Shown here piece after piece: positions 18,483-58,431 of a DNA stretch of 64,000 nt. Numbering within the stretch: the stretch's first letter is position 1; each line of letters opens with the position of its first letter. The notes beneath the pieces were generated by a model. The model ran no database searches. It was not told the DNA's origin and worked only from the letters and a program-made list of their open reading frames with translations. Origin of the DNA: Elusimicrobiota bacterium (GTDB lineage Bacteria > Elusimicrobiota > Elusimicrobia > UBA1565 > UBA9628); NCBI GenBank assembly GCA_003452935.1, contig DMMY01000016.1, positions 142,009 to 206,008 on the forward strand, given 5' to 3'. The position numbers and the translations under genes were made by a program.

Positions 18483-19151
18483 ATGAAACGAATTTTTCCG
18501 ACCTTCTGCGCCCTGGCACTGGGCCTGCAAGCCTGCGCCGGGATTAAACTGGGCTCTCCGAACTCGCCTGCGTCGCGCTCAACCTCCTCCCAGGAAAAGG
18601 CCGAGGAAGCCGCGCTGCAGTCCGTGCTGCAGAATCTCCAGACCAAAAAATCCGACTACAAGCTGGGCGGCGCGGACTTGATCGAGATCACGGTGTTCCA
18701 GCAGCCGGAGATGAGCCGCAGCCTGCGCGTGAGCCAAAACGGCACGATCACGTTTCCCTTGATCGGCACGGTGAAGGTAGGGGGGCTTTCGGTCGCCGAA
18801 GCCGAAGAAGCGCTCTCCACGAAACTCAAGGACTACGTCATCAGCCCGCAGATCACGATCTTCATCAAGGAATACGGCAACAAGAAGGTCTTCGTGCTGG
18901 GCGAGGTGACCAAGCCGGGCTCCTTCGAACTGCCCACCGAAGCCAAGCTGACCGTGCTGGAAGCGATTTCCTTAGCAGGAGGATTCACCGGCATCGCGGC
19001 ACCGGACCGCACCAAGGTGATCCGCAACATCGACGGCAAGAGCCAAAGCTTCAAGATCGTGGTCTCGGACATCACCTCGCGGGGGGAAAAGCACAAGGAC
19101 ATCCCCCTGGAGCCCAACGACGTGGTCTGGGTGCCGCAGAGCTTTTTCTAA
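18483..19151 (+). CDS. wza: Polysaccharide export outer-membrane lipoprotein, Wza-like (Poly_export + SLBB)
   Basis: Lipobox LGLQAC; FPLIGTVKVGGLSVAEAEEAL and GEVTKPG motifs of the polysaccharide export family. Confidence 0.8.
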   Translation: MKRIFPTFCALALGLQACAGIKLGSPNSPASRSTSSQEKAEEAALQSVLQNLQTKKSDYKLGGADLIEITVFQQPEMSRSLRVSQNGTITFPLIGTVKVGGLSVAEAEEALSTKLKDYVISPQITIFIKEYGNKKVFVLGEVTKPGSFELPTEAKLTVLEAISLAGGFTGIAAPDRTKVIRNIDGKSQSFKIVVSDITSRGEKHKDIPLEPNDVVWVPQSFF

Positions 19152-19212
19152 ATTTTCTCACCTCGATTTTCCCGCATGCCATATAAACCCCTAAGAGCAA
19201 ATTCGCCCGAAT

Positions 19213-19221
19213 TGCTATAAT
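19213..19221 (+). promoter_or_regulatory. Extended -10 box aattgcTATAAT at the left edge of the low-GC island
   Basis: TG at 19213-14 and TATAAT at 19216-21. An identical aattgctataat string recurs at 24560-24571. Confidence 0.4.
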
Positions 19222-19365
19222 TATTAAAATTTCGTTGTCGACTTTTAATTTAATAATCGACAGTGTTTTAATTTATCCGCGATTCAGCTCCTTGACTTTT
19301 GCCGGCAGGTTTTGCAACTCAGCATAGATTGATATCGAAAATTCATAGAGATAAATATCGATTAA

Positions 19366-20451
19366 ATGAAGCATTCAAGAATACAAAGAACGATCCCTGT
19401 CAATAAAGGGAACTATTCAATGGAAACCCCGGAGCGGGAGGCATTATTTGACCATTTTCGCGGCGAGGGCTGGGAAAAGGAATATTGCAATTACCGCCAA
19501 AATTGGGTTAGCTACCCCTCGAAGCAATTTATTTCCGATTACCCCTTACTGGTTGACATTGAGCTCTCCACTCGCTGCAATCTGCGCTGCCCGATGTGCT
19601 ACACGATAACCAATGAATTCAAAAAAAGGGTAAAGCCCCGCTTGATGGGATTTGGCCTTTTCACCAAAATTATCGATGAAATACGAGGAAAAGTTCCAGC
19701 GATTAGACTAAGTCTACGCGGAGAGCCCACCATTCATCCCAAATTCATCGCTTGCGTCGATTATGCCAAACGAAGCGGCATTCAAGAAGTATCAACTCTG
19801 ACCAACGGCAGCACACTTTCAACAGAATTTATTTTAAAGATGATGCAGGCCGGCATTGATTGGTTAACCATATCAGTGGATGGCCTGGATGGAACGTATG
19901 AGAGCATCCGTCGGCCTCTAAAATTCAGGGCCCTTCTACAAAAACTAAAAGATATCAAGAGAATTAAGGATAAAACAGGGGCTCACAAACCCGTCGTCAA
20001 GATTCAATCCATCTGGCCGGCAATCAAGCAGAATCCCGAGAACTTCTACAACACCCTTTCTCCGTATGTTGATCTGATCGCATTTAATCCATTGATTGAC
20101 TATCTCGGCAAGGACGAGGAAATAGTCTACGAAAACAACTTCATTTGCTGCCAATTATACCAACGTCTTGTCGTGGGCGCTAACGGAGGCGCGATGATGT
20201 GCTCCAACGACGAAGACGGGACTATCATCGTCGGAGATGCGGAGAAACAAAGCATTCATAGCATCTGGCACGGATCCGCATTGAACAAACTCCGGGCCGT
20301 CCATCGGAAAAAGAATGGTTTTCTTCAGATAGCGGTATGTCGCAAATGCTATCTTCCGCGCTTGACCGAAGAAAGCGAGACCGCTCAAATCAACGGCCGC
20401 GAATTCACGATCAAGAATTACGTCAACAGAAATCAAAGAATCGGTCAATAA
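19366..20451 (+). CDS. Radical SAM / SPASM-domain protein no. 1
   Basis: CNLRCPMCY (Cx3Cx2C) near the N-terminus, plus a C-terminal Cys cluster (FICCQLY...MMCSND...AVCRKCY) of SPASM/twitch type. The start could be the ATG at 19420. Confidence 0.8.
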   Translation: MKHSRIQRTIPVNKGNYSMETPEREALFDHFRGEGWEKEYCNYRQNWVSYPSKQFISDYPLLVDIELSTRCNLRCPMCYTITNEFKKRVKPRLMGFGLFTKIIDEIRGKVPAIRLSLRGEPTIHPKFIACVDYAKRSGIQEVSTLTNGSTLSTEFILKMMQAGIDWLTISVDGLDGTYESIRRPLKFRALLQKLKDIKRIKDKTGAHKPVVKIQSIWPAIKQNPENFYNTLSPYVDLIAFNPLIDYLGKDEEIVYENNFICCQLYQRLVVGANGGAMMCSNDEDGTIIVGDAEKQSIHSIWHGSALNKLRAVHRKKNGFLQIAVCRKCYLPRLTEESETAQINGREFTIKNYVNRNQRIGQ

Positions 20452-20469
20452 TTATTTAAAGGGAATGCC

Positions 20470-21495
20470 ATGAAACCGACCTTCAACTTTCCATCCTTAG
20501 GGCCCGCCTACATCATCGCAGAGATCGGCGGGAATTTTACAAATGCCCGAGAAGCGACAGCTCTCATTGACGCGGCCGCCGATTGCAATGTCAACGCCAT
20601 AAAACTTCAGACTTACAGAGCAGAAACCATCGCGAGCCGAAAAGCCATTTTCGACATGGAGAATACCGGCGTCACGTCTCAATTCGACTTATTCAAAAAA
20701 TACGAGATCGACAAGAAGCTGCATCATGACGTTTTTAATTACGCGGCCAGACGGGGATTGGATTATTTTTCAACCCCCTCGCACGAATCCGACGCGGACA
20801 TGCTTGAAGGACTGGGCGTGGCGGTCTACAAAATCGGGTCCGACGATGCGGTTAATCTCCCATTCTTGCGCTACGTCGCGCGCAAGGGCAAGCCCATGAT
20901 TCTCGCCACAGGAATGTGTACCATGGACGAAGTGCGCGATTCCGCGCGTGTTGTTCGTGAAGCCGGATGCCCCCGGCTCATTCTGCTTCATGCCATTACG
21001 AGTTATCCGACCCACGCTGAGCATGTCAACCTGGCCGCCATGCAGGCCATGATGCGTGAATTCCCGGACTTGGAGGTCGGTTATTCAGACCACACTCTCG
21101 GCATAACGGCATGCATTTGCGCCGCGGCCATGGGGGCGCGGGTTCTGGAAAAACATTTTACCTGCGATAAGCATGCCCCAGGACCGGATCACATGCTTTC
21201 CGCCGACCCCGCCCAAATGAAAGAGCTTGTGCAAAGGGTTCGCGAATTTGAACTCATGCGGGGAAATGGCATCAAGCAACCGGCGTTATCTGAAGAAAAA
21301 ACTCGCCTCAACAATCGCAAAAGCATAGTACTCATGCACGCGATCTCCAAAGGGGAAAGGCTGACGCCCTCCCACCTCGCCGTCAAACGCCCTGGGCACG
21401 GCATCGCTCCGCGGCACCTGCCCGAACTGCCTGGCCGATCCGTCAACAAGGACATGAAGAGAGACGACATCCTTTCCTGGGAGGACTTAGACTGA
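20470..21495 (+). CDS. N-acylneuraminate/pseudaminate synthase family (NeuB/PseI-like) with a C-terminal SAF domain
   Basis: YIIAEIGGNF ... AIKLQTY ... VAVYKIGSDD ... GKPMILATGM NeuB signature blocks. Confidence 0.85.
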   Translation: MKPTFNFPSLGPAYIIAEIGGNFTNAREATALIDAAADCNVNAIKLQTYRAETIASRKAIFDMENTGVTSQFDLFKKYEIDKKLHHDVFNYAARRGLDYFSTPSHESDADMLEGLGVAVYKIGSDDAVNLPFLRYVARKGKPMILATGMCTMDEVRDSARVVREAGCPRLILLHAITSYPTHAEHVNLAAMQAMMREFPDLEVGYSDHTLGITACICAAAMGARVLEKHFTCDKHAPGPDHMLSADPAQMKELVQRVREFELMRGNGIKQPALSEEKTRLNNRKSIVLMHAISKGERLTPSHLAVKRPGHGIAPRHLPELPGRSVNKDMKRDDILSWEDLD

Positions 21496-21521
21496 AAGTC
21501 GGGATCATCCTGCAGGCGCGC

Positions 21522-22202
21522 ATGGGGTCATCGCGTTTTCCCGGTAAAGTCCTGCGCTTAATCGGGAAGCGCAAGCTGCTGGAGCATGTTTTTTTTCGAT
21601 TGAGACATTCAAAAGTCGAAACAACCTTGATCGTCGCAACCCCAGACATTACGGCTGATGACCCCATTTCCGAGCTCTGTCGCCAACACGAAGTGGCATG
21701 CTTCCGCGGCAGCGAGCTCAATGTCCTCGACCGATATTATCGCTGCGCCTTACGGCACGCTTTTGACCACATAGTCCGCTTGACAGGAGACAATCCGTTC
21801 GTCGATATTGAAGAAATGGACCGTCTAATTAGGCTTCATTTGGAGACCGAGGCCGATTTCTCCTATTCCTTTCAGGTTTTGCCAATCGGCTGCGGAGCCG
21901 AGATATTTTCCTTCCCAGCCCTGGCAACAAGTTTCCAGGAGGGACACGCATCGCATCATTTGGAGCACGTAGACGAATACATATTCGACCATCTCGATCG
22001 CTTTCGCACCAGTGCGTTGATAGTTCCGGGGGACAAGCAGAAGCCAAAAGTGCGCCTGACCGTTGACACGCCGGAAGACTATGCCCGAGCATGTTTCATC
22101 GTCAAACACTCATCAAGCGAATATGTATCGACAGAGGAAGCGATAGCCCTGGCGGCGGATTTTGACCATATTACAAGGAAACCGTCAGGCGGGATCCTAT
22201 GA
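21522..22202 (+). CDS. Nonulosonic-acid cytidylyltransferase (PseF/NeuA/SpsF family). The N-terminus probably starts upstream at a non-ATG codon.
   Basis: MGSSRFPGKVL matches the GSSRLPGK motif. The in-frame upstream reading LKVGIILQARM supplies the conserved AIIQAR block, with CTG 21492 overlapping the neuB-like stop. Confidence 0.7.
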   Translation: MGSSRFPGKVLRLIGKRKLLEHVFFRLRHSKVETTLIVATPDITADDPISELCRQHEVACFRGSELNVLDRYYRCALRHAFDHIVRLTGDNPFVDIEEMDRLIRLHLETEADFSYSFQVLPIGCGAEIFSFPALATSFQEGHASHHLEHVDEYIFDHLDRFRTSALIVPGDKQKPKVRLTVDTPEDYARACFIVKHSSSEYVSTEEAIALAADFDHITRKPSGGIL

Positions 22203-23167
22203 CTTTCGCTATTTGCGCGGAATCTTCGCATCAACGAGGCATGGGGCATATTTTCCGCGCGATAAACTTTCACTCATATCTGAAGGCGAAAGGGGAAGCC
22301 TGCGTTATCTTAACCAACCCCCATGCGCCGGCTGAAGACGCGCTGCGCAAGAACAGCGTTCAATTCGACTTGATAGACCTTAACAACGAGCAAAGCCAAT
22401 GGGAACGCATCCTCATCTCCCGTCACAGAATCGATGTTTGGATTAACGACCGCCTAACTACCGGGAAAGCTCACGCCTTAAGGGTCAAAAACGCAGGCGC
22501 CAAACTAATCACGATGGATGATCACGGTCCCGGAGCAGATTTGAGCGATCTTCATGTGGCCAGCCTATCTTTCTCAGAATCAGAGCCACCACGAGGCCGC
22601 AGGGTGCTGCAAGGCATTGATTACCTGATCTTAAGTCCGCACATTATCGCGCGGCGCCGCCTCCGAAGGACTCTGGAACGGATCGTTATTTCCTTGGGAG
22701 GCAGCGATACATACGGCGTCACGGTCAAAGTCGCCATTCTCCTAAGAGAGCTGAACTATTCGGCCGTCATTCATCTCGGCCCCGCATTCGCCCACCACGA
22801 TGCGCTCGCGGCATTGCTCGGAGACAATCTCTCGGTAACGGAAAACATCCCATCGTTGGTTGATTTGTTTTCAGATTTCGATCTAGCCATCACAGGTGCC
22901 GGCGTGACCCCTTTCGAAGCCAACGCGGCGGGCTTGCCGGCACTAGTCATAGCCAACGAGCTCTTTGAAATACCCAACGGCAAGCTGCTGCATGCCGCAG
23001 GATCCGCTTTTTTTATGGGCCATCACAAAAACCTTTGCCGTCATCAAATGCAGGCAGGACTTTCCTACGCCGCCGCCCACCTCGAAGAAATGAGCCGACG
23101 AGGCATGGAACGATTTTCTCCTCAAACAGCTTTCGAGAGAATATTTAAAGAAATTAAGAATATATAA
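22199..23167 (+). CDS. PseG-like UDP-sugar hydrolase (GT28 C-terminal-like)
   Basis: N-terminal AICAESSHQRGMGHIFRAINF resembles PseG (R.DSSSQIG.GH). C-terminal ISLGGSD...ITGAGVTPFEANAAGLPALVI block. Confidence 0.55.
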   Translation: MTFAICAESSHQRGMGHIFRAINFHSYLKAKGEACVILTNPHAPAEDALRKNSVQFDLIDLNNEQSQWERILISRHRIDVWINDRLTTGKAHALRVKNAGAKLITMDDHGPGADLSDLHVASLSFSESEPPRGRRVLQGIDYLILSPHIIARRRLRRTLERIVISLGGSDTYGVTVKVAILLRELNYSAVIHLGPAFAHHDALAALLGDNLSVTENIPSLVDLFSDFDLAITGAGVTPFEANAAGLPALVIANELFEIPNGKLLHAAGSAFFMGHHKNLCRHQMQAGLSYAAAHLEEMSRRGMERFSPQTAFERIFKEIKNI

Positions 23168-23168
23168 T

Positions 23169-23855
23169 ATGACTGCCGTCATCCACCAACCAGATTTCTT
23201 GCCCTATCTCGGATTTTTCCATAGATTACTTCAGGCACATTTGTACGTAATCCTGGACCACGTTCAATTCGTATACGGCAGCAGAAGTTGGACCAGCAGG
23301 GATAAGATAAAGACTTCCCAAGGAGCAAAATGGCTGACCGTACCGATAAAAAAATGCGCGCAGGCGACGCCGATCGATCAAGTAATGCTTTCCAACACGG
23401 ACTGGCGCCAAACCCATCTTAACTTATTGTTCGAAAACTACCGCTCCACCCCATTCTTTGAGGAAATATTGCCCCATATAGAGGCTCTCTATCAGTTTCA
23501 GTGCGAACGCCTGGTAGATTTCAACCTTGCCTCAATCAATATGCTGAATCATCTTTTTGGCATCTCCATTCCATCCGCCCTCTCCAGCAGCCTGAAACCT
23601 GCGGGAAAAAGCAACGAGTTGCTCGTTGACATTCTTAAAAAAGTCAATGCGACCACATATCTTTCAGGAATCGGGGCGAAAGCTTACTTCGATCCCAAGC
23701 CGTTCGAAACCGCAGGCATACGCGTTATTTGGCAGAATTTCTCTCATCCAGTTTATCTACAATGCCACGGCCCCTTCATTGCGTCTCTGAGCAGTATCGA
23801 CCTGCTTTTTAATTGCGGCATAGCGAAATCACGCGAAATACTAAGGAGCTGCTAA
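23169..23855 (+). CDS. WbqC-like family protein (O-antigen-cluster associated, function unknown)
   Basis: MTAVIHQPDFLPYLGFF start typical of WbqC-family proteins. Confidence 0.55.
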   Translation: MTAVIHQPDFLPYLGFFHRLLQAHLYVILDHVQFVYGSRSWTSRDKIKTSQGAKWLTVPIKKCAQATPIDQVMLSNTDWRQTHLNLLFENYRSTPFFEEILPHIEALYQFQCERLVDFNLASINMLNHLFGISIPSALSSSLKPAGKSNELLVDILKKVNATTYLSGIGAKAYFDPKPFETAGIRVIWQNFSHPVYLQCHGPFIASLSSIDLLFNCGIAKSREILRSC

Positions 23856-24481
23856 TGAATATTCTCGCGATCGGCGCGCATTTTGACGATATAGAACTCG
23901 GATGCGGAGGAGCACTAGCAAAGCATGTTGCCCATGGCGATAACGTATACGCCTATGTCGCGACCCTTTCCGGTTTTGCCAACCAAAAAAATCAGGTTGT
24001 TCGAACCAACAAGATCGCGAAAGAGGAAGGAAAAAAGGCAATGGCTATTTTGGGGGCAACCCTGATTTGCGGAGACCACAAGACCTTAGCTGTCGAATTC
24101 AATGAGCGATTAAATACGCAAATCTTGAGCATCACCGAGGATCAAGCTATAGGTTTGGTCTACACACATTGGATCGGCGACATTCATCATGACCACCAAG
24201 CCGTGGCGCGGGCGTCGCTACACTCCTGCCGCCACGTTCCACGCATGCTGATGTATCGCAGTAATTGGTACCACTCCACCATGGAATTTCAAGGAAATTT
24301 TTACGTTGACATAACCGATCATATCGACACAAAATTTAATGCCGTCCGGGCGCACTCTTCCGAACTAAAACGAATCGGAAACAGATGGATCACTTTTTTT
24401 CAAAATGAGGCGGAAAACGCCGGGCAACGCATTTCGGTCAAGCACGCGGAGGTCTTCGAGCTTGTGAAATGGCTTGAATAA
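23855..24481 (+). CDS. PIG-L/LmbE family N-acetyl-sugar deacetylase
   Basis: ILAIGAHFDDIELGCGG (AHPDD-type motif) and HxDH segment. AGGAG RBS before the ATG at 23855. Confidence 0.75.
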   Translation: MNILAIGAHFDDIELGCGGALAKHVAHGDNVYAYVATLSGFANQKNQVVRTNKIAKEEGKKAMAILGATLICGDHKTLAVEFNERLNTQILSITEDQAIGLVYTHWIGDIHHDHQAVARASLHSCRHVPRMLMYRSNWYHSTMEFQGNFYVDITDHIDTKFNAVRAHSSELKRIGNRWITFFQNEAENAGQRISVKHAEVFELVKWLE

Positions 24482-24562
24482 AGCGCCGACCTCTGGTAAA
24501 ACCTGCCAACAAGGCCCAGCTTTTCAATGCATCGGATTACGCATCATATTCCTAATGGCAAT

Positions 24563-24571
24563 TGCTATAAT
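24563..24571 (+). promoter_or_regulatory. Extended -10 box aattgcTATAAT upstream of wzc
   Basis: TG at 24563-64 and TATAAT at 24566-71 in a 230-bp AT-rich spacer. Confidence 0.4.
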
Positions 24572-24711
24572 AATGAACACGATAACATCTTTATTCAGAT
24601 AGAGTGGCAAACGCAGATTTAACAATTCACAGTATTACGGCCTGAAAAAAAGAGAAACAAATAACGGGCGAGAGCCCTTGATTTCCAGACTCATTTGACT
24701 GAAGAGCCCCC

Positions 24712-26454
24712 ATGAACCCCACGCCCGATTCCGAAACCGAACTTGATTTGACTCATTACATGGATATCATCCTGCGCCGCCGATGGATCGTCCTCTCGGC
24801 GCTCTCCATCGTTTTTATCTCAACGATGCTCGTGACTTTCACCACCAAACCAATCTACCAGGCCAGTTCCTTGCTTGTCATCGAAAAGGAACGCAGTTCC
24901 AGCAATGCGGTCTACACCAACGGCGCCCTCATTGAAAGCAGCAATGACGACTATTACCAAACCCAATACAAACTGCTCCAAAGCAAATCCTTAACGCAAA
25001 AGGTTTTTGACGATCTGCACTTATCCAATGCCGCCGATTTCGCGGACCCTCGCGGCATAGAGAAGTTCCGCAACGCCCTGACCATTTCCCCGGTCCTGCG
25101 CAGCCGTTTGGTCTATGTCCGGGTGCAGTCCCACAATCCACATCTCGCCGCCAAAGCCGCCAATGCCCTCAGTGAAACCTTCGTCGATCAAAATCTCTCC
25201 AATCAACTTTTCATCTCCAAGGAAGTCTTGCAGGCCCTACAAGTCAATGAAGACTCCCCAAAAGCCCGGCAGATGTACGAAGCCCTGCCCGCCGTCGTCA
25301 GCAACCCGCTCATCCAAACCCTTAAAGGCGAACACGCCAAGCTCGAGGCGCAATGCGCGGAAATGTCACAAAAATTCACGGCCAAATACCCAGCCATGAT
25401 CGCTTTGCGATCCAACCTGAACGCGCTCAAGGGGCAAATTCAAGCTGAAACAGACAAAGTCGTGCAGAGCCTGAAGACCGAACTGTCCGGCCAGTTGCGC
25501 GGGAATAATGTTCGCATCGTTGATTCTGCCACTGTTCCGGAGTCTCCGATCAAGCCAACAAAACGGACGAACGCTTTGCTCGGGCTTATCGGCGGCCTAG
25601 GCCTGGGCTTGGCCCTGGCATTCCTGGTGGAAATGATCGATCAAAGCGTTCGAACCCAGGAAGATATAGAGGAAAAGCTCGGCCAGCCCTTCCTTGGCAT
25701 AATTCCTCAATCCATTATCCGGAACAACACAATCATTGAGGCGATGCTGGCCAAAGAACTTTCTCTTACCAGCGAGGCCTTCCGCAACATGCGAACCATG
25801 GTGGATTTCGCCGGCATTGGCGGAAAAGCAAAGACCGTCCTGCTGACATCGACGGTCCAGGGAGAGGGAAAGACTTATATAGCTTCCAACTTAGCCGTGG
25901 CCTGGGCCCAGATAGGAGAAAGCGTTTTGCTCATTGACGGAGACCTTCGCCGCCCAAAAATCCACAAAGCCTTCCATCTCTCGGCCGAAAAAGGTCTCAG
26001 CGATTTCTTGGTCTCAGGCCGCCACACCGAAGACGTGGCAAACCTAGTCCAACAATGCGTGGTTCCCGGCTTATCTCTCCTGCCCTGCGGCCAACGCCCC
26101 CCCAATCCATCAGAACTGCTCAACACTCCCCGCTTGGGCGCGATGATCGCCTGGGCGCAGGAACATTACGACAGAGTCGTCGTCGACAGCACACCCATGT
26201 TTCCCATCAACGACACATTGCTTTGGGGCCGCCATATCCCCTCCAGCATCTTCGTCGTTCGCTACGGCGAGACCCGCACCCCGCTTATTCGCAGCGCCTG
26301 TCAAAAACTCATCACCAGCAGCATCAAGCCACTCGGCGTCGCTATCAACGCGGCAAAAGCCGGCGGGCTATCCTACGCATCCTACGGCTACTACTATCAA
26401 CAATACTATCAGCAATACCACCAGGAATCGGAGCTCAGCAAAAAGTCCACATGA
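24712..26454 (+). CDS. wzc: Polysaccharide co-polymerase / tyrosine autokinase (Wzc/BY-kinase family)
   Basis: N-terminal Wzz region with TM; Walker A QGEGKTYIASNLA; DGDLRRP; C-terminal Tyr cluster YASYGYYYQQYYQQY. Confidence 0.85.
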   Translation: MNPTPDSETELDLTHYMDIILRRRWIVLSALSIVFISTMLVTFTTKPIYQASSLLVIEKERSSSNAVYTNGALIESSNDDYYQTQYKLLQSKSLTQKVFDDLHLSNAADFADPRGIEKFRNALTISPVLRSRLVYVRVQSHNPHLAAKAANALSETFVDQNLSNQLFISKEVLQALQVNEDSPKARQMYEALPAVVSNPLIQTLKGEHAKLEAQCAEMSQKFTAKYPAMIALRSNLNALKGQIQAETDKVVQSLKTELSGQLRGNNVRIVDSATVPESPIKPTKRTNALLGLIGGLGLGLALAFLVEMIDQSVRTQEDIEEKLGQPFLGIIPQSIIRNNTIIEAMLAKELSLTSEAFRNMRTMVDFAGIGGKAKTVLLTSTVQGEGKTYIASNLAVAWAQIGESVLLIDGDLRRPKIHKAFHLSAEKGLSDFLVSGRHTEDVANLVQQCVVPGLSLLPCGQRPPNPSELLNTPRLGAMIAWAQEHYDRVVVDSTPMFPINDTLLWGRHIPSSIFVVRYGETRTPLIRSACQKLITSSIKPLGVAINAAKAGGLSYASYGYYYQQYYQQYHQESELSKKST

Positions 26455-39425: not shown

Positions 39426-39586
39426 TATGGAGGTTGAGTGTGTGGCATCCTCCATCCACTACGACAAACTGCTACAATTTCAGCTGCGAGTCCAGCAATA
39501 TCCAATCATGCAGTGAACCTTTCCATATATAAAGTCCGCGGCATGTTATTGCGCGCAATCGGGATTTAATTGGACTCATCATACCC

Positions 39587-41071: not shown

Positions 41072-41075
41072 TGAT

Positions 41076-46019: not shown

Positions 46020-46031
46020 CACCCGACTAGC

Positions 46032-49221: not shown

Positions 49222-49828
49222 AATGAAAAGAGCTTTAGACTTGGCCTTAGCCTGTTCCGGCCTCCTGTTCTGCGCACCTATCATGCTCGCCATCACGCTA
49301 GTCCAAAAACTAAGCTCCCCAGGCCCTTTGCTCTATCGCGGGAGCCGGGTGGGAAAAAATGGCCGCAGATTCAGCATCCTCAAGTTCCGAACCATGGTCG
49401 TCAACGCTGAAAAAATTGGCGGGTCCTCAACCTCCGATAGCGATCCCCGGATCACCTCAATGGGCAGGTTTCTGCGGCGATGGAAGCTGGATGAATTGCC
49501 CCAACTTTGGAACGTGATCACCGGGGACATGAGCCTTGTCGGCCCCCGCCCGCAGGTCGAACACGATGTTGCCCAGTACTCGGAGGATGAGAAAAAAATT
49601 CTTACGGTTCGCCCGGGAATCACAGACTGGTCTTCGATCAAGTTCCGCAATGAAGGAGCAATTTTGGCGAAATATCCGGATCCGGATCAAGCCTACATCG
49701 AGCAAATTCGTCCGGAGAAAATTCGTCTGCAGATGCTCTATATCCGCGAGATGTCCTTTTTGGGCGATTTAGAAATACTCTGGGCGACCATCGTCGCATT
49801 ATTCGGAGCAGAGGTCAAACTGCCATGA
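49222..49828 (+). CDS. Initiating sugar-phosphate transferase (PglC/WbaP C-terminal-domain type, 'bacterial sugar transferase')
   Basis: MKRALDLALACSGLLFCAPIMLAI TM helix, then LYRGSRVGKNGRRFSILKFRTM ... GDMSLVGPRP. Start trimmed to the ATG at 49222. Confidence 0.8.
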
Positions 49829-51388: not shown

Positions 51389-52317
51389 GAACAGCATTTT
51401 TCAAGACGCTCGAAGAATTGGCGGCTAAAGAACCAAGAATAAACCTCATCACCGGCGACCTCGGCTTCACCGTCGTTGAACCTTACGCGGAGCGCTTTCC
51501 GCTGCAATTCCTCAACGCAGGAGTAGCCGAGCAAAACATGACGGGACTGGCGGTGGGGATGGCTCTGTCAGGCAAGATCGTCTTCACTTATTCGATAGCC
51601 AATTTCCCTACCCTGCGATGCATCGAGCAGATTCGCAACGACGCCTGCTATCACAAGGCGAATGTGAAGGTCACATGCGTGGGAGGCGGGCTCGCCTATG
51701 GGGCGCTGGGCAGTTCCCATCAAGCCACCGAGGACATCGCTATCATGCGCTCGCTTCCAGGCATGACCGTCGTCGCTCCGGGCGACCCCGTCGAAGCGGA
51801 ACAAGCCACCCGCGCCATCGCGGCGTTCGATGGCCCCTGCTATCTGCGTCTCGGCAAAGCCGGAGAACCTCCCGTCCACCGCGACCCCATCGATTTTAAA
51901 CTTGGGAAAGCCATTCGGGTTCGCGACGGCAAGGACATCACGATCATATCGACAGGAGGCATGCTTCACCCATGCTTTGAGGCAGCCAGCCAACTGGAGC
52001 AAGCCGGTTTGTCCGCGCGGCTTCTCAGCATGCACACAATCAAGCCTATCGATGTCCAGTCGGTCCTATCCGCCGCGCAAGAGACTTCAGCGATCCTGAC
52101 GGTTGAAGAGCACTCGGTGATCGGCGGGCTGGGCAGCGCGGTGGCCGAAATTCTCGCGCAGCAAAGTTCCCGCCGGATAGAATTCCGAATCATGGGACTG
52201 CCCGACCAGTTCTGCCGGACCGTAGGCAGCCAGGACTACCTCAGGCAAGCCTTCAAGCTGTCGCCAGAAGCCATCAAACTCGCAGCCACCGAACTGATTC
52301 GAAGAACCGATGAATAA
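51385..52317 (+). CDS. Transketolase, C-terminal (pyrimidine-binding) subunit
   Basis: LNAGVAEQNMTGLAVGMALSGKIVF ... GALGSSHQATEDIAIMRSLPGMTVVAPGDPVE. Confidence 0.85.
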   Translation: MRTAFFKTLEELAAKEPRINLITGDLGFTVVEPYAERFPLQFLNAGVAEQNMTGLAVGMALSGKIVFTYSIANFPTLRCIEQIRNDACYHKANVKVTCVGGGLAYGALGSSHQATEDIAIMRSLPGMTVVAPGDPVEAEQATRAIAAFDGPCYLRLGKAGEPPVHRDPIDFKLGKAIRVRDGKDITIISTGGMLHPCFEAASQLEQAGLSARLLSMHTIKPIDVQSVLSAAQETSAILTVEEHSVIGGLGSAVAEILAQQSSRRIEFRIMGLPDQFCRTVGSQDYLRQAFKLSPEAIKLAATELIRRTDE

Positions 52318-53449
52318 TATCCCGCGCCGCCTTGACGCATACCGAGTACCTTTCGTCAAACCAAAGGAGCACTACCTGAGGCTGAAGCCAGAAATCGACG
52401 GCGCCTTTATAGGGTGCCTCAAAAACGGCGATCTCATCCACCGCCAGCAGCTTCTCGATTTTGAAAAGCACTTGTCCGCCTATGTTGGGACAAAATACGC
52501 CATCGGCCTAGCCAGCGGCTACCACGCGCTGCTTTTCGGACTTATGGCCGCCAAAGTCGGCCCGGGAGACGAAGTTATTACCGTGGCGCATACATTTGCC
52601 GCGTCGGTCTCGGCCATCGTGCACACCGGCGCCAAGCCTGTATTAATCGACGTCCAGGACGATTTCAACATGGACGTCACCCAACTCAAGACCGCGTTGA
52701 GCAACCGCACGAAAGCTATCATGCCGGTTCATCTCAACGGCAGGCTTTGCGATATGGACCAAGTGATGGACTTCGCCGACAAGCACCGCCTGGCAGTCAT
52801 CGAAGACGCCTGCCAGGCTTTGGGCGCAACACATGGAGGCACCATGGCGGGAGCCTTCGCCACGGGGTGCTTCAGTTTCTATCCCTTCAAATCCCTTGGC
52901 GGTTTCGGCGACGGAGGCGCCTTAACCACGAACGACCCGGATGTCGCACGCTTTGCCACCCTGATGCGCTACAATGGAGAGGACCGGGCGACGGGAGATT
53001 TCTTCTATCACGGACACACCGCGTTGCTCGACAACGTCCAAGCCGCCGTGCTTGACGTAAAGCTGCGGCATTTTCCAGCATGGCTCGAGCATCGCCGCGA
53101 GATAGCCGCCATCTACAGCAAGGGCCTTGCCGGCATCCCCGGCCTTAGCACCCCCCGCATCGACGGCGGCAAAAATCGCGACGCATGTCAGAACTACGTT
53201 ATCCGAACCGTCCAGAGAGACTCCTTGCGCGCGCATCTGACTGCAGCGGGAATCGAGACCCTTGTCAGTTGGCCAAAACCACTGTGGGAACACGCAGGGC
53301 TCAGTCTCGGGAAACCGAATCTTCCAAAAACCAAGGCCATCTGCCAAGAAGTTTTATCATTGCCGCTATGCGCCGAAACCACCCACGAAGAAACGCAGTT
53401 CGTCATAGACAGCATCCGGAGCTTTACAAGCCAATGCCCCTCGCCTTAA
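52310..53449 (+). CDS. DegT/DnrJ/EryC1/StrS-family PLP-dependent sugar aminotransferase (PseC-like)
   Basis: AIMPVHLNGRLCDMDQVMDFADKHRLAVIEDACQALGA ... FSFYPFKSLGGFGDGGAL. Confidence 0.85.
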   Translation: MNNIPRRLDAYRVPFVKPKEHYLRLKPEIDGAFIGCLKNGDLIHRQQLLDFEKHLSAYVGTKYAIGLASGYHALLFGLMAAKVGPGDEVITVAHTFAASVSAIVHTGAKPVLIDVQDDFNMDVTQLKTALSNRTKAIMPVHLNGRLCDMDQVMDFADKHRLAVIEDACQALGATHGGTMAGAFATGCFSFYPFKSLGGFGDGGALTTNDPDVARFATLMRYNGEDRATGDFFYHGHTALLDNVQAAVLDVKLRHFPAWLEHRREIAAIYSKGLAGIPGLSTPRIDGGKNRDACQNYVIRTVQRDSLRAHLTAAGIETLVSWPKPLWEHAGLSLGKPNLPKTKAICQEVLSLPLCAETTHEETQFVIDSIRSFTSQCPSP

Positions 53450-54591
53450 GCCGGCGTTGCGACCGATCCGTTCAATCGGAAATACGCGCCATGTCGGTGG
53501 AATGCGAGCAATTAGCCGGATTAAACCTCGCCCAAGGGGTGTGCGACACGCCCATCCCAACGCCCGTTTGTCTGGGCGCGCAAAGAGCAGTTGGCGATGG
53601 GATCAACAGCTATACTCGTTTCGACGGGCTCATCGAACTACGCTGCGCCATCGCTCAAAAATTGCGTCGTTACAACGCGATCTCGGCAGACCCGGAATCC
53701 GGCATCGTCGTCAGCTGCGGATCAACCGGTTCTTTTTATGCGGCCTGTTTGGCTCTCCTTAATCCCGGCGATGAAGTCCTCCTTTTTGAGCCGTTTTACG
53801 GCTATCACCTCAATACCCTGCTCGCAGTCGAGGCCGTGCCTGCCTTTATCCGCATGCAAGCGCCGGGATGGACCTTCGCCAAGGCGGACATCGAGAAAGC
53901 GATCACGCGCAAGACGCGAGCCATCGTGGTCAACACTCCAAGCAATCCATCGGGAAAAGTATATACTCGGCAAGAACTCCAGTGGATCGCGGATGTGGCG
54001 GAAAAACACGATCTCTTTGTGCTTACTGACGAAATCTACGAATATATTCTTTATGAAAACCGCAAGCACCTAAGCCCGGCATGCCTGCCCGGCATGGCGG
54101 AACGCACCATCACGATCTCCGGATTCTCGAAGACTTTCAGCATCACGGGCTGGAGAATCGGCTACAGCGCGTGCCACGCAAAATGGGCGCAAATGATCGG
54201 ATATATGAGCGACCTGATCTACGTCTGCGCCCCGGCCCCTCTGCAGGCCGGCGTGGCGCGTGGACTCGCTGAGCTCGGGGATGACTACTACGATAGCCTC
54301 CGCAAAGACTTCGAGCGCAAGCGATCGGTGATTTGCGCGGCGCTCGACAAGGCAGGATTGACTCCCTGCACGCCACAAGGCGCATACTATGTCCTCGCAG
54401 ATATCAACCGTTTGCCCGGGAAGACCGGCAAGGAACGGGCGATGCATCTCTTGCGGTCTATCGGCGTGGCATGCGTTCCGGGAGAGGCTTTCTTTCACAA
54501 TGGCCAAGATGGCGCGGGCATGGGACGCTTCTGCTTCGCCAAGACCGATGAAGAACTTGAGGATGCGTGCAGACGGCTAGCGCGATTATGA
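53426..54591 (+). CDS. Class I/II PLP-dependent aminotransferase (AspAT-like fold)
   Basis: VVNTPSNPSGKV ... SGFSKTFSITGWRIGY lysine-motif region. Start trimmed to MPLALSRRC (ATG ~53426), overlapping the DegT 3' end. Confidence 0.7.
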
Positions 54592-55355
54592 ACGATCACG
54601 ATTTTTCGACGGTTACGGAAATTCCCGGGAATAAAGCATCCCTCGAGCAGTTGTCCATGATCCACACGCGATATCGATTGGCATATGATTTTTGCGCCGA
54701 CAAGGACGTGCTCGAAGCGGCTTGCGGCCCAGGGCGAGCGTTGGGTTATCTGGCGCAAAAAGCGCGATCCGTCGTCGGAGGAGACCTTTCCCAGAACCTG
54801 GTCGATCTCGCCAACCGCCACTATGGAGGGAGAATTTCAGTTGTACGAATGGACGTCCAGGCAATGCCTTGGGCCGACCACAGTTTTGACGTAGTGATTC
54901 TCTACGAGGCCCTCTATTACCTGCCTGACGTAGACCGCTTCATAGCTGAAGCTCGTCGGATTTTGCGACCGGAAGGCGTACTTCTGCTGTGCACGCCAAA
55001 CTGTGAGTGGGAGGGATTTAATCCCAGTCCTTTCAGCCGTAAATATTTTTCAGCCTCAGAATTGCGCCTCTGGCTCGAAAAAGCAGGCTTTACCGTTCAG
55101 ATCAAGGCATGCTTTAAAGTCTCCCATGACACCTTAAAGCAAAAAGCAGTTTCTGCAGCACGCAAAGCCGCAGTGACGCTGGGACTTATTCCTAAAACGA
55201 TGAAAGGCAAGACGTTCCTCAAACGGCTTTTTTACGGGCAACTCTCCGAACTCGGACCAGAGATAGATACGACGGCGCCCGCCAAGGTGCCGGTGTCCGT
55301 GGAGCCCAGGCATCTCCCGAACTACAAGGTTCTCTATGCCATCGCCAAGCGATAA
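54588..55355 (+). CDS. Class I SAM-dependent methyltransferase (Methyltransf_11-like)
   Basis: LEAACGPGRALGYLA motif I. ATGA overlap with the upstream stop. Confidence 0.7.
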   Translation: MNDHDFSTVTEIPGNKASLEQLSMIHTRYRLAYDFCADKDVLEAACGPGRALGYLAQKARSVVGGDLSQNLVDLANRHYGGRISVVRMDVQAMPWADHSFDVVILYEALYYLPDVDRFIAEARRILRPEGVLLLCTPNCEWEGFNPSPFSRKYFSASELRLWLEKAGFTVQIKACFKVSHDTLKQKAVSAARKAAVTLGLIPKTMKGKTFLKRLFYGQLSELGPEIDTTAPAKVPVSVEPRHLPNYKVLYAIAKR

Positions 55356-56505
55356 CCTTGGTCCTGCCTTTCTTGTCATCCTGACCGCGTCTATGGCTTG
55401 CGCAGGGACGCCCCGAGGGCCAAAAGCGGCCTTGACACGATTCCCCATCGGAATTTACGGAGGAAATGACCCAAAGCATCTGGCACGGCTCAAGAGCGAT
55501 GGTTTCGACTCATTTCATTGCAGTTGGAAGGATTTTGACCGTCTAGCGGCCATGGCAAAAGAAGCCAAGCACCAAGGAATGCGGATGATCATTTCCCCAG
55601 ATGAAATCCGTCGAAAAGCATCCTCTCATATCCAGGAGTGGCCGGTTGATGCCTGGTACCTATTCGACGAACCAGATGTCCATCGGTTATCAAGCGCCAC
55701 TCTCCAAGGGATCTCCGAGCAAACCCGCTCGTGGGATCCAGAACGGCCACAGACATTCGTCATCGGGCAGGGATCTCCCACGAACGTCTACGGCCGGATC
55801 GGGGATATATTGATGATGGACTGGTATCCCGTTCCACACAGAGCGCCAGATTCCGTAGCGGATCAGATCGACCTCCTCATGAAGACGCTTCCAAAAGGGA
55901 AACCTTTCTGGATGGTAATCCAGGCATACGATTGGGCCGATGAGATAAAGGATCCAACCAAGATCAAGGGCCTGCGATTCCCGAACCGCCATGAAATCCG
56001 CTTCATGAGTTATATCGCCGTCATGCATGGGGCCCGGGGGCTTTTTTATTGCACTTTACTCAAGAAAGGAAAGACCCTTTTCGAATATCCGGAACTCTGG
56101 CAGGAAGTTTCCGTTGTCACTCGAGAAATAAGGGATATGCGTCCCGTCTTCGAACGAGGCAAGCGGGTACGGCTGCCATTCCCGCCAAACCCGGATGGCG
56201 TAGAGGCAAAGGCGTGGCGTTATAAGAACCGCGACCATGTCATCATCCTCAATCGCAAAGCCACCGTCTATCAGAAGGTTCCCGAGGAACTTTTCAATGG
56301 GCTATGGCAGCCGATCCACTGCGCAAAAAACAATTGTCGAGAGGCCCTCTCATCGTTTTATGGCGCTTGGTATCTGAGGCCCTATCACGTAATGGTTTTC
56401 AAGAGCCGGCTGAATTGGTTTCGGGGACTATCGCGGGGTTTGCCAATAGCGACCTCCTGTGACCAAGACGACACTCTAACCCGCAGTAGGCATTTGGTAA
56501 AATAA
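55336..56505 (+). CDS. Lipoprotein, putative TIM-barrel glycoside-hydrolase-like polysaccharide-processing protein (paralog 1, island GC)
   Basis: Lipobox LTASMAC. Shares FPIG, AWYLxDEPDV, GDILMxDWYPVPH, EIRFMxY and LPFPPNPDG..AKAWRY blocks with the ORF at 58377-59486. Confidence 0.35.
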   Translation: MPSPSDNLGPAFLVILTASMACAGTPRGPKAALTRFPIGIYGGNDPKHLARLKSDGFDSFHCSWKDFDRLAAMAKEAKHQGMRMIISPDEIRRKASSHIQEWPVDAWYLFDEPDVHRLSSATLQGISEQTRSWDPERPQTFVIGQGSPTNVYGRIGDILMMDWYPVPHRAPDSVADQIDLLMKTLPKGKPFWMVIQAYDWADEIKDPTKIKGLRFPNRHEIRFMSYIAVMHGARGLFYCTLLKKGKTLFEYPELWQEVSVVTREIRDMRPVFERGKRVRLPFPPNPDGVEAKAWRYKNRDHVIILNRKATVYQKVPEELFNGLWQPIHCAKNNCREALSSFYGAWYLRPYHVMVFKSRLNWFRGLSRGLPIATSCDQDDTLTRSRHLVK

Positions 56506-56514
56506 TTATTCTTA

Positions 56515-58431
56515 ATGCCAAAAATATTTTTTTCATATAAACGCCTCCTTATCATAGGCGCGGATGCGATGGCTTTTACGGTTTCTTACGCCCTAGCCTT
56601 TTTCCTGCGCTTTGATCTCCATATCCCTCTGAACCAACTAGCCAACTTTCTCGTCACCGTCTGGCTCGTGGTCGGCATCCGGCTGCTGACCTTCCTCTAC
56701 CTCGGCGCCTACGAAGGCGTCTGGCGCTACGCCAGCATCGCGGACCTCTCCACCCTCCTAAAAGCCATGGCCGCGAGCCAGGTCGTCATCACCGCCGCGG
56801 TCCTGTTCCTCCAGCACGCCAATTTTCCGCGCTCCACGCTCCTCATCGACGCCGCCTTGGCCCTCATCTTCGTCGGCCTCACCCGCTTCGGAATCCGCAT
56901 GACCCGCCAATGGCGCCAGCAAGGCCACCCACAGGACCTTCCCCGGCTGATCATCTTCGGCGCCGGGGATTTGGGGGAGACCATCGTGCGCGACATGCAA
57001 AGGCGCAAGCGCCCCACGCACAAAATCGTGGGCTTCGCCGACGACGATCACGCCAAATGGCGCATGCGCATCCACAACGTGCCCATCTTGGGAGGCCGCA
57101 AGGAACTGCCCAAGCTCATCGAGAAGCACGGCGTCGACGAGGTCGTAGTCGCGGTCAACCACTCGCGCGGACCCCTGATCCAGGACTTGATCGAGCTCTG
57201 CCGCAAGGAGCCGGGCCGCAAGGTCGAATTCAAGACCGTGCCCACCATCGAGGAGACCCTGCGCAGCGACCATACCCATCAAAAAGGCTTTCGCAGAATC
57301 GAGCTCTCGGACCTCTTGCGCCGCAAGCCCGTCGCCACCGACCTGGGAGCGGTCAAGAACCTCATCGCGGGCAAGACGGTCCTGGTCACGGGCGCGGGCG
57401 GGAGCATCGGCTCCGAGCTCTCGCGCCAGATATTGCGCTTCAAGCCATCCAAGCTGATCCTCCTGGAGAAGCACAACACGGCCCTTTTCTACATCGACCG
57501 GGAGCTCTGCGCGGTCAAGAACGGGACCTGCCTCGTGCCCGCGGCGGGAGACATCACGGACCCCGACCTCCTGGACAATCTCTTCGACGCGCACAAGCCC
57601 CAGCTCGTGTTCCACGCGGCCGCGCACAAGCACGTCTCGCTCATGGAGGCCAATCCCCAGGAGGCGGTCAAGAACAACACCATAGGCACCCATCTCCTGG
57701 CCGAGAAAGCGGCGCGCTACCACGCGGAACGCTTCCTGTTCATCTCCACGGACAAGGCGGTGCGGCCCACCAGCGTCATGGGCGTCTCCAAGCGCATGGC
57801 CGAGATGGTGATCCGGGCCCTGGCCCCGGCCGCAGAGACCAAGTTCCTGTCCGTGCGCTTCGGCAATGTCCTGGGCAGTTCCGGCAGCGCCGTCAACATC
57901 TTCAAGGAGCAGATCGCCCATGGCGGGCCGGTGACCGTGACGCATCCGGAGGTCACGCGCTACTTCATGACCACCCAGGAGGCGGTCGAGCTGATCCTTC
58001 AGGCCTGCTCCATGGGCAGCGGGGGGGAGATTTTCGTCTTGAACATGGGAGAGCCCGTAAAGGTGGCGGACGTCGCCCGCAACCTCATCCTCTTGTCGGG
58101 CCTGGAGCCGGACAAGGACATCAATATCGTCTACACGGGCCTGCGGCCGGGCGAGAAAATGTACGAGGAGCTTTTCCGGAGCAACGACGTGCGCCAGGAC
58201 ACGGGCCACCCGGACATATTCGCGGCCCTGCCCGAGGAGGCGGACCTCGCCATCCTGCGCAACCATATCGAGAGCCTGCGCGCGCTTTGCAGCCAGGCCG
58301 ACCCGGCGCCCCTGTTGCGCAAAATCCAGCAGCTCGTGCCCGCCTACACGCCTTCTGCCGTGCACGCGGCCCAACCATGCCCTTGCGACCAGCCATCAGC
58401 TATAGCCCCTGTCTCAGACTTGGCCTCCTAG
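56515..58431 (+). CDS. Membrane-anchored UDP-GlcNAc 4,6-dehydratase (WbpM/PglF/CapD family)
   Basis: N-terminal TM helices; KTVLVTGAGGSIGSEL Rossmann motif; full CapD-type architecture. Only the first ~100 nt are AT-rich; the rest is high GC. Confidence 0.85.
   Translation: MPKIFFSYKRLLIIGADAMAFTVSYALAFFLRFDLHIPLNQLANFLVTVWLVVGIRLLTFLYLGAYEGVWRYASIADLSTLLKAMAASQVVITAAVLFLQHANFPRSTLLIDAALALIFVGLTRFGIRMTRQWRQQGHPQDLPRLIIFGAGDLGETIVRDMQRRKRPTHKIVGFADDDHAKWRMRIHNVPILGGRKELPKLIEKHGVDEVVVAVNHSRGPLIQDLIELCRKEPGRKVEFKTVPTIEETLRSDHTHQKGFRRIELSDLLRRKPVATDLGAVKNLIAGKTVLVTGAGGSIGSELSRQILRFKPSKLILLEKHNTALFYIDRELCAVKNGTCLVPAAGDITDPDLLDNLFDAHKPQLVFHAAAHKHVSLMEANPQEAVKNNTIGTHLLAEKAARYHAERFLFISTDKAVRPTSVMGVSKRMAEMVIRALAPAAETKFLSVRFGNVLGSSGSAVNIFKEQIAHGGPVTVTHPEVTRYFMTTQEAVELILQACSMGSGGEIFVLNMGEPVKVADVARNLILLSGLEPDKDINIVYTGLRPGEKMYEELFRSNDVRQDTGHPDIFAALPEEADLAILRNHIESLRALCSQADPAPLLRKIQQLVPAYTPSAVHAAQPCPCDQPSAIAPVSDLAS

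Follow-up and report, generated by a model that had tools for sequence, protein, structure and literature searches.

In the group 1 K loci of Klebsiella and Escherichia coli, conserved export genes at the 5' end are followed by a variable region. At the O-specific antigen (OSA) locus of Pseudomonas aeruginosa, highly divergent gene clusters occupy a conserved site with a conserved wbpM at the 3' end; wbpM is reported to be a region of high recombination in this species, and serotype switching takes place via recombination (PMC4600120). The O-antigen clusters of Salmonella have a lower G+C content (GC) than the genome, varying from segment to segment, which has been read as transfer from a lower-GC source, and their flank-near genes are host-like in composition (PMC3715488). 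The exopolysaccharide (EPS), BPS and MASC systems of Myxococcus xanthus use a Class 3 outer-membrane polysaccharide export (OPX) protein, made of Poly_export and SLBB domains only, near a beta-barrel, together with a Wzx/Wzy pathway and a polysaccharide co-polymerase (PCP) (PMC9603273). Here, we analysed a stretch of 64,000 nucleotides (nt) from an Elusimicrobiota bacterium (GCA_003452935.1, contig DMMY01000016.1, positions 142,009 to 206,008 of the forward strand), referred to as the window. Between a wza-like export gene and a wbpM homologue, it carries an island of lower GC at about 19150-56650. We consider it very probable that this island is the exchangeable part of a chromosomal Wzx/Wzy-dependent capsule/EPS locus of high-GC groundwater Elusimicrobiota, where lower-GC DNA was exchanged at a fixed site.

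Composition and boundaries of the island

Total GC was 0.642 at positions 1-19151, 0.527 at 19152-56651 and 0.637 at 56652-64000. The GC of third codon positions (GC3), calculated per gene, was 0.600±0.040 in the island (n=30) versus 0.819±0.072 in the flanks (n=22; Mann-Whitney p=2e-9). When genes were pooled, the values for the three codon positions (GC1/GC2/GC3) were 0.648/0.442/0.851 for host genes and 0.562/0.428/0.602 for island genes, indicating that the shift affects all codon positions and not the silent one alone. Maximum-likelihood change-point fits to the third-position series placed the left break at 19145, where GC falls from 0.882 to 0.589 (log-likelihood ratio 162), next to the wza stop at 19151. 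The right break was found at 56652, where third-position GC rises from 0.621 to 0.872 (log-likelihood ratio 98), 137 nt inside wbpM. The length of the island is therefore 37.5 kb.

All 30 island genes are encoded on the + strand. Neighbouring genes mostly overlap or are less than 30 nt apart, with just three gaps longer than 150 nt. Two minus-strand open reading frames of at least 150 amino acids (aa) were detected in the island, both lying within + strand genes that have Pfam matches. A preliminary description of this DNA had proposed that GC and GC3 fall after the wza stop and recover about 100 nt into wbpM (start at 56515), and that the genes in between are co-directional and tightly packed. 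Both break points and the gene arrangement bear this out, and the computed profile is two-state rather than uniform. Among sub-blocks of the island, GC3 showed a narrow spread, from 0.57 to 0.63. This modest variation fits a single source as well as a common pool, and is compatible with one or several acquisition events.

The compositional step is not an assembly chimera, since contigs from independent assemblies span both junctions. At least 30 contigs carry proteins identical to those of the window and match it at 99.95-100% over both junctions and the interior of the island. These contigs come from ENA (PRJNA292723, groundwater), JGI (3300009296 and 3300009031), NCBI (GCA_003509925.1 and DOMI01000061.1) and Logan assemblies, and single contigs of 84-197 kb hold both wza and wbpM. 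A 116-nt coordinate offset in the NCBI scaffold corresponds to two N runs inside the island. Several independent assemblies begin, stop or have N runs at about 33417-33433, in the second radical SAM gene, and at about 45806, in a methyltransferase gene. The sequence around these breaks is not repetitive, and they possibly result from coverage or strain heterogeneity.

Comparison with related loci and rival explanations

The window was compared with related contigs and loci, labelled by L-numbers. Across Elusimicrobiota, a conserved export module was found, consisting of a porin gene, wza, wzc and a Wzy_C-like gene in that order. On Ga0376277_0000092, a 556-kb Elusimicrobiota contig, frr-pyrH-tsf-rpsB, the porin gene and wza are followed 29.8 kb further on by wbpM, all on one strand. 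The genes between wza and wbpM are unlike those of the window and have a GC3 of 0.67-0.77, compared with 0.94-0.98 for housekeeping genes. Syntenic flanks around a differing core, as the preliminary description had anticipated, were thus directly observed. The proposed size of about twice the usual holds against typical O-antigen clusters but not within the clade, where this relative has an interval of about 30 kb.

Replacement at the level of strains was observed directly in a sister species, represented by L119/L121 and by L120. Their Wza proteins are identical to each other and 79% identical to that of the window. The two types are 98.9% identical over 9.7 kb, with no similarity past the 3' end of wzy. 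Beyond that point gene content differs, and GC3 is 0.56-0.63 in most of the genes. Together with the different core of Ga0376277_0000092, this replacement supports the view of the preliminary description that the region is a polysaccharide cassette swapped horizontally at a fixed site.

The position of the compositional step relative to the export genes varied between loci. In L119 and L123, the GC3 of wzc and wzy (0.80-0.86) is that of host genes, and the low-GC3 core (0.57-0.64) starts after wzy; in L123 this core of about 0.57-0.64 stands beside genes with a GC3 of 0.93-0.95. L003 shows the same step as the window, at the wza/wzc junction (GC3 0.92 to 0.66), and provides the best matches to the Wzc and Wzy proteins of the window (67% and 40%). 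Since orthologous wzc and wzy genes differ in GC3 between loci, composition tracks history and not protein family. The Wzc identities were also discordant with those of Wza: they lie 4-11 points below the expectation toward sister loci and 13-17 points above the Wza-based expectation toward L003 and L005 (residual standard deviation 5.7). The earlier picture of a variable core between conserved export genes and wbpM therefore holds for wza and wbpM, which are on the host side, but not for the phylum-conserved wzc and wzy, which lie inside the low-GC block.

Low GC upstream of wbpM homologues, recovering at or inside wbpM, is a recurrent feature of the relatives. In L056, L057, L060 and L061, low GC3 reaches 120-150 codons into wbpM and then rises (to 0.84 in three of them). 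These variable recovery points indicate crossovers or junctions at varying sites inside wbpM. The gene order transketolase-C, DegT, aminotransferase, wbpM is common to L051 and L057. Compared with the window, their DegT and aminotransferase proteins, encoded upstream of wbpM, are 47-58% identical (47-49% for DegT, about 57% for the aminotransferase), and the transketolase-C proteins only about 25-27%.

A syntenic counterpart of the core was found in L127 (Elusimicrobia GCA_016218575.1). The run includes the genes for LIC12162 (59% identical), Wzx (65%), LIC13510 (51%), a protein with nine transmembrane (TM)-like segments (53%), a GT4 glycosyltransferase (70%) and AsnB (67%), with a GC3 of 0.74-0.87. 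Relative to L127, the core of the window has an extra second radical SAM gene and a BNR-PorV pair. With 51-70% identity to this counterpart, the backbone of the core belongs to a cassette family within the phylum and is not unique. Outside the species, the best LIC12162 homologue (70% identical) is encoded in L125, in a different cluster of nonulosonic-acid type. IS110 and rve transposase genes flank this cluster and an HTH_Tnp_1 fragment interrupts it (L125:91-1728 and 17027-17344), and it is possibly a vehicle for moving such genes between genomes.

Several observations weigh against exchange. The second type of the sister species rests on a single contig (L120). The backbone genes shared with L127 (51-70%) are about as diverged as its Wza (66%), and some island genes could have an old, partly vertical origin. 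Nearest-neighbour comparison of the core genes returned homologues only 50-70% identical, among which no donor was identified; the few with organism names include both Elusimicrobia and one Gallionellaceae. Exact-protein look-ups with Wza, WbpM and the BNR protein, made for conspecific strains with other cassettes, returned one clone only, and no alternative cassette was found in the same species among at least 30 contigs from several data sets (at least 99.95% identical). A generic start-of-gene effect may account for part of the dip at the start of wbpM: host genes in the window have a GC3 of 0.71 in their first 30 codons versus 0.84 in the remainder, and wbpM, with 0.43 in its first 30 codons and 0.88 in the remainder, has the minimum among them. 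Finally, the pathway assignment described below consists of family matches, several of which (NeuB, PseG-like, PseC-like and PseB-like) are below curated cutoffs.

The best surviving alternative is that the region was inherited vertically as native DNA and owes its lower GC to locally different mutation or selection (weak expression, relaxed codon selection or less GC-biased gene conversion). The recurrence of a reduced core GC3 in nearly all relatives examined, whatever their gene content, speaks for this explanation, as do the divergence of the backbone genes shared with L127, similar to that of Wza, and the presence of the same island in all conspecific contigs. We nevertheless judge it improbable. 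The composition steps are sharp (at most 150 nt) and involve GC1, not GC3 alone; the wzc and wzy orthologues are host-like in sister loci and island-like here; the Wzc and Wza similarities disagree; and sister strains with a 98.9% identical flank have unrelated cores. Disfavoured overall, a native origin may still apply to the older backbone genes.

A self-mobile element that entered by site-specific recombination, be it an integrative element or an island of phage origin, would also appear as a large, compositionally distinct and co-directional block, and the best LIC12162 homologue elsewhere lies near IS110 and rve transposase genes. This explanation is much less probable, however, because the right junction is inside a conserved gene that was left intact and because relatives have other polysaccharide cores at the same site. 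No tRNA gene was found by a tRNA scan of the 64-kb window, and an Rfam scan gave no matches. Pfam and NCBIfam scans of the island proteins gave no match to an integrase, transposase or conjugation family. No att-like direct repeats were found at the two boundaries, the repeat search giving only short chance matches and the paralogy of the AsnB genes. A mobile element was rejected on these grounds. An assembly or binning artefact joining two organisms, as might be suspected of metagenome assemblies and of a metagenome-assembled genome (MAG) scaffold with N runs inside the island, was rejected with near certainty, since the N runs are scaffold gaps away from the junctions and independent assemblies from different runs agree over both junctions and the interior, including on single contigs.

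Predicted gene content of the island and its flanks

Gene families were called using Pfam and NCBIfam profiles with their cutoffs; genes are on the + strand unless stated otherwise. The island starts with a 5.3-kb block of six genes of nonulosonic-acid type, which occupies the wza-wzc interval (within 19152-24711). The first gene encodes a predicted radical S-adenosylmethionine (SAM)/SPASM enzyme (19420-20451; Pfam Radical_SAM and SPASM; GC3 0.53), which had no NCBIfam match at or above cutoff. It is followed by genes for a NeuB-family nonulosonic acid synthase (20470-21495; Pfam NeuB 273 bits, and SAF), a CMP-sugar cytidylyltransferase (21522-22202; CTP_transf_3 90 bits), a PseG-like candidate nucleotide-sugar hydrolase (22199-23167; a weak NCBIfam PseG match and no Pfam match), a WbqC-family protein (23169-23855; WbqC 225 bits) and a PIG-L family deacetylase (23855-24481; PIG-L 57 bits). 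The core enzymes of a nonulosonic pathway, a NeuB-family synthase and a CMP-activating cytidylyltransferase, are thus both present. No N-acetyltransferase was found among the island proteins by family scans or by a check of the nonulosonic pathway. No assignment to a particular nonulosonic acid was obtained, as every equivalog-level model scored below its cutoff (NeuB 337 versus 400, PseI 270 versus 340, PseG 71 versus 154, PseC 187 versus 424 and PseB 158 versus 408 bits).

Other genes occupy the wza-wzc interval elsewhere: AAA_14/DUF4143 ATPase genes in L119, defence-like HATPase_c_4 and SLFN_AlbA_2 genes in L123, and, in L122, opposite-strand genes for LPG_synthase_TM and a B12 radical SAM enzyme. 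As judged from gene content, the wza-wzc gap appears to be an insertion hotspot across relatives.

Downstream of this block, wzc (24712-26454) encodes a predicted co-polymerase with a C-terminal tyrosine autokinase domain (Pfam Wzz and GNVR; TIGR01007 137 bits, cutoff 108). It has two TM segments, is 55-67% identical to Wzc of groundwater Elusimicrobia relatives, and its gene has a GC3 of 0.66 versus 0.86 for wzc in the sister loci L119 and L123. The adjacent gene (26451-28181) encodes a 576-aa membrane protein with a Wzy_C domain, polymerase or ligase-like (Wzy_C 53 bits, cutoff 32; 12 TM). This gene follows wzc across the phylum, and its GC3 is 0.58 here versus 0.80-0.82 in sister loci. Next come genes for a GT2 glycosyltransferase (28168-29106; Glycos_transf_2 96 bits) and a LIC12162-family transferase (TIGR04331; 29176-30978; 513 bits, cutoff 225). 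The latter has many homologues at 60-70% identity, two of them with organism names, from Gallionellaceae (64%) and Elusimicrobia (59%). They are followed by genes for a Wzx flippase (30972-32537; Polysacc_synt 43 bits, cutoff 28; 10 TM), a second radical SAM enzyme (32588-33748; Radical_SAM 45 bits), missing in the syntenic L127 cassette, and a LIC13510-family surface carbohydrate biosynthesis protein (TIGR04326; 33777-35768; 497 bits, cutoff 250).

The next two genes encode a predicted secreted BNR/sialidase-like protein of 875 aa (35878-38505; BNR_2 34 bits), with a signal-peptide-like N-terminus and a C-terminal sorting-type domain, and a PorV/PorQ-family outer-membrane protein (38502-39425; PorV_fam 164 bits, cutoff 90). 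The C-terminus of the BNR protein matches that of PorZ. In the sister species, a Laminin_G_3/fn3 protein of 1627 aa and a PorV/PorQ-family gene are found just upstream of the locus (L119:1-5473), with host composition. Only a C-terminal region of about 170 aa is shared between this protein and the BNR protein (31% identical, E=7e-17). These similarities hint at a C-terminal sorting signal like that of the type IX secretion system in Elusimicrobiota.

A polytopic membrane protein with 9 TM segments (39587-41071) had no Pfam or NCBIfam match; its 53% identical homologue is at the equivalent position in L127. This protein may be a cassette-specific repeat-unit polymerase. There are thus two polymerase candidates, the Wzy_C-like protein and the 9-TM protein. 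The middle part of the island continues with genes for a GT4 glycosyltransferase (41076-42323; Glycos_transf_1 129 bits; 70% identical to its L127 homologue), an AsnB-type glutamine amidotransferase (42311-44242; Asn_synthase 265 bits; 67% identical to its L127 homologue) and a protein without assigned family (44215-45348), whose sole match, to the kinase-like family APH, is below cutoff (E=0.0096). A SAM-dependent methyltransferase gene (45345-46019; Methyltransf_11 and Methyltransf_25), the start of which is that of the public gene call in L132, precedes a second AsnB-type amidotransferase gene (46032-47954; Asn_synthase 305 bits). The second amidotransferase is a paralogue of the first, linked to it by the internal repeats D1 and D4. 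Another GT4 glycosyltransferase gene (47929-49140; Glyco_trans_1_4 108 bits) comes next.

Toward wbpM, the island encodes a small polyprenyl-phosphate sugar-phosphate transferase of 201 aa (49223-49828; Bac_transf 199 bits), the predicted initiating enzyme, with one N-terminal hydrophobic segment. A Bac_transf gene is present upstream of wbpM in most wbpM loci examined. A TylF-type O-methyltransferase (49825-50559; TylF 42 bits) is followed by a split transketolase-like pair (50543-52317), with an N-terminal gene at 50543-51388 (Transketolase_N 155 bits) and a C-terminal gene at 51385-52317 (Transket_pyr and Transketolase_C); homologous pairs occur in L013, L019, L051 and L057. The following genes encode a DegT/PseC-type sugar aminotransferase (52310-53449; DegT 316 bits), a class I/II pyridoxal-phosphate aminotransferase (53434-54591; Aminotran_1_2 200 bits) and a SAM-dependent methyltransferase (54588-55355; Methyltransf_11 82 bits). 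Taken together, the families of a Wzx/Wzy pathway are complete: Wzx, a Wzy-type protein, Wzc (PCP-2a), an OPX protein, Bac_transf, one GT2 and two GT4 glycosyltransferases. By its predicted gene content, the island is therefore a Wzx/Wzy-dependent capsule/EPS locus; given the tyrosine-kinase Wzc and the OPX protein, it is of the capsule/EPS type and not a classical O-antigen cluster.

The last island gene (55393-56505) encodes a glycoside-hydrolase-like protein with island composition (GC3 about 0.58). It is a paralogue (41% identical over 328 aa, E=1e-85) of a lipoprotein encoded downstream of wbpM (58377-59486; lipobox LSAC; GC3 0.84) in the host flank. The AlphaFold model of the downstream protein (pLDDT 73) shows a TIM barrel and a beta-sandwich, and the best Foldseek matches were GH13, GH164, GH30 and GH66 enzymes, with TM scores of 0.5-0.6. 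We tentatively describe it as glycoside-hydrolase-like on the basis of this model, from which the fold of the upstream paralogue was also deduced. The two paralogues enclose wbpM; the upstream copy has no signal peptide and the downstream copy has a lipobox. A homologue is also found 3' of wbpM in the relative L128. The incoming DNA may have introduced a separate copy of a hydrolase gene associated with the locus.

The wbpM gene itself (56515-58431) encodes a membrane-anchored UDP-sugar 4,6-dehydratase of the WbpM/PglF/CapD type (Polysacc_synt_2 361 bits, and CoA_binding_3) with 5 N-terminal TM-like segments. It has host composition after codon 46, and all named relatives are Elusimicrobia (52-70% identical); judged by these features, the right flank is native. 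It comprises wbpM, the hydrolase-like lipoprotein gene, two toxin-antitoxin-like pairs and an M3 peptidase gene. The toxin-antitoxin-like pairs, TumE/HVO_A0114 and Gp49 (HigB-like) with an HTH protein, are located at 59770-60323 and 62436-63126, and the GC3 of their genes (0.65-0.76) is under host level.

On the left, a housekeeping block (truB, infB, nusA, rimP, an M50 protease gene, dxr, cdsA, uppS, frr, pyrH, tsf and rpsB) is followed by genes for an RmlD-like reductase, a BBP2_2 beta-barrel, gmd and the OPX lipoprotein. The first of these genes, for an NAD-dependent sugar epimerase/reductase (14943-15875, - strand; RmlD_sub_bind 198 bits; GC3 0.82), is divergent from the porin gene. The order rpsB, rmlD-like, porin, gmd is also kept in L007. 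The outer-membrane beta-barrel, or porin (15975-17231; BBP2_2 52 bits and a weak NCBIfam EpsL match; GC3 0.89), is likely, from its domain and gene position, to be the pore partner of the short OPX protein; its gene adjoins wza in 14/25 related loci and also in L119, L123 and L129. GDP-mannose 4,6-dehydratase is encoded by gmd (17244-18329; GDP_Man_Dehyd 503 bits; GC3 0.90). The wza-like gene (18483-19151; GC3 0.83) encodes a short OPX lipoprotein of 222 aa (Poly_export 85 bits, and SLBB; lipobox LQAC), whose relatives are all Elusimicrobia (45-79% identical), in line with a host from Elusimicrobiota and not from the proteobacteria. Only Poly_export and SLBB matched in this protein and Wza_C gave no Pfam match; a Class 1 Wza would have a C-terminal Wza_C helix and about 380 aa. 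Its predicted domains fit Class 3, with Poly_export and SLBB but neither Wza_C nor GfcC.

The promoters of the island had been described as AT-rich extended -10 boxes. A direct search for the motif TGNTANAAT (TGnTAnAAT) gave 10 occurrences versus 3.3±1.8 expected, an approximately threefold excess. Each of the three large island gaps contains one + strand copy: the AT-rich gap at the left compositional junction (19145-19419) has TGCTATAAT at 19213-19221, the gap upstream of wzc (24482-24711) has TGCTATAAT at 24563-24571, and the gap at 39426-39586 has TGCTACAAT at 39470-39478. Further copies were detected at 18465 (before wza), at 56495 (before wbpM) and, in the host flank, at 15885 (- strand), 7737 and 1052. 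The motif is therefore present in all three large gaps but is not confined to the island. Judged from its distribution, TGnTAnAAT lacking a clear -35 element appears to serve host and island DNA alike as the common promoter-like element of intergenic regions. Scans for consensus sigma-70 -35/-10 pairs gave no enrichment in the first half of the region (22 versus 19±4.2 expected) and a modest one in the second half (22 versus 12±3.4); as they demand a -35 match, they listed no + strand extended -10 site. Alignment of the four large intergenic gaps revealed nothing in common beyond the -10 motif.

Proposed mechanism and comparison with known systems

We infer the recombination mechanism, the donor pool, the order of the pathway and the selective driver of this locus as follows. 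The fixed site is delimited on the left by the housekeeping block with the native porin/OPX export pair and on the right by the native wbpM. Incoming DNA would derive from a pool of genes with lower GC, its codon positions being those expected of a genome with about 52-53% GC, and most likely entered by homologous recombination anchored in the conserved flanks. On the left, crossover would have occurred at or just past the 3' end of wza; on the right, it would have fallen in the first ~140 nt of wbpM. The incoming segment would also have displaced the phylum-conserved wzc and wzy-like genes in this lineage.

In the pathway that we envisage, WbpM, the DegT aminotransferase and the small phosphoglycosyl transferase would begin the repeat unit on undecaprenyl phosphate. 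The GT2, GT4, LIC12162 and LIC13510 transferases would lengthen it, using substrates that may include a CMP-activated nonulosonic acid supplied by the six-gene block, while the amidotransferases, methyltransferases, radical SAM enzymes and transketolase-like pair would modify the sugars. Wzx would flip the unit, the Wzy-type protein would polymerise it, and Wzc, the OPX protein and the porin would export the product. Diversifying selection on the surface glycan, for example by phage, could drive the exchange.

With somewhat less than even confidence, we also suggest that the region from the rpsB operon and porin-wza to wbpM is a hotspot of glycan diversity throughout the phylum. A common, phylum-crossing pool of lower-GC cassettes (GC3 about 0.6) would supply it, with crossovers after wza, after wzy or inside wbpM, and the wza-wzc gap would be a second insertion hotspot. 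A pool crossing phyla is hinted at because the LIC12162-type gene is closer to that of Gallionellaceae (64%) than to the named Elusimicrobia homologue (59%). If this suggestion is true, it would imply strong ongoing diversifying selection, by phage or grazers, on the surfaces of never-cultured groundwater bacteria.

The arrangement itself has long been known from O-antigen and capsule loci of other bacteria, and no concept is changed by our analysis. It extends a textbook pattern, a fixed-site recombination hotspot for polysaccharide genes of atypical composition, to a lineage known almost solely from metagenomes. In practice, porin-wza on the left and wbpM on the right provide anchors for extracting and typing glycan cassettes from Elusimicrobiota MAGs, with the caution that composition-based binning may lose or misplace such segments of 30-40 kb. 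The enzymology (two radical SAM enzymes, a split transketolase pair, the LIC12162 and LIC13510 families and the BNR and PorV-like pair) may be of more interest than the architecture of the island.

Compared with known systems, the locus resembles the OSA region of P. aeruginosa, from ihfB/himD to wbpM, in having a fixed site, a lower-GC variable part and wbpM at the 3' end. As in the recombination at the wbpM of that species, the right junction of the window is in the 5' end of wbpM, and those of relatives are at variable positions within it. Unlike OSA, the locus belongs to a different phylum, its left anchor is the OPX/porin pair by the rpsB operon and not ihfB, it is of capsule/EPS type, with a tyrosine-kinase Wzc and an OPX protein, and it is larger, at 37.5 kb. 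The lower GC of the island relative to its flanks resembles the lower GC of enterobacterial O-antigen clusters. Unlike the K loci, which have wza, wzb and wzc all in the conserved part, the locus has wzc and the Wzy_C-like gene on the exchanged side, wza parted from wzc by the six-gene nonulosonic-acid block, and a putative Class 3 OPX protein instead of a Class 1 Wza.

The combination of a short Poly_export-SLBB OPX protein, encoded near an outer-membrane beta-barrel gene, with a Wzx/Wzy pathway and a PCP is similar to that of M. xanthus. The Wzp porins of M. xanthus are 18-stranded and PgaA-like; the barrel described here has Pfam BBP2_2 and weak EpsL matches. Its gene lies 1.25 kb upstream of the OPX gene, with gmd between them, and the pairing is kept in relatives. 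The locus also resembles Leptospira-type surface-glycan loci, since LIC12162 (TIGR04331) and LIC13510 (TIGR04326) were matched well above cutoffs (513 and 497 bits). It differs from them in its Elusimicrobiota context and in its Wzc/OPX export system. In the window and in the best-matching contigs, L125 and L126, LIC12162/LIC13510 genes co-occur with NeuB-type and CMP-transferase genes.

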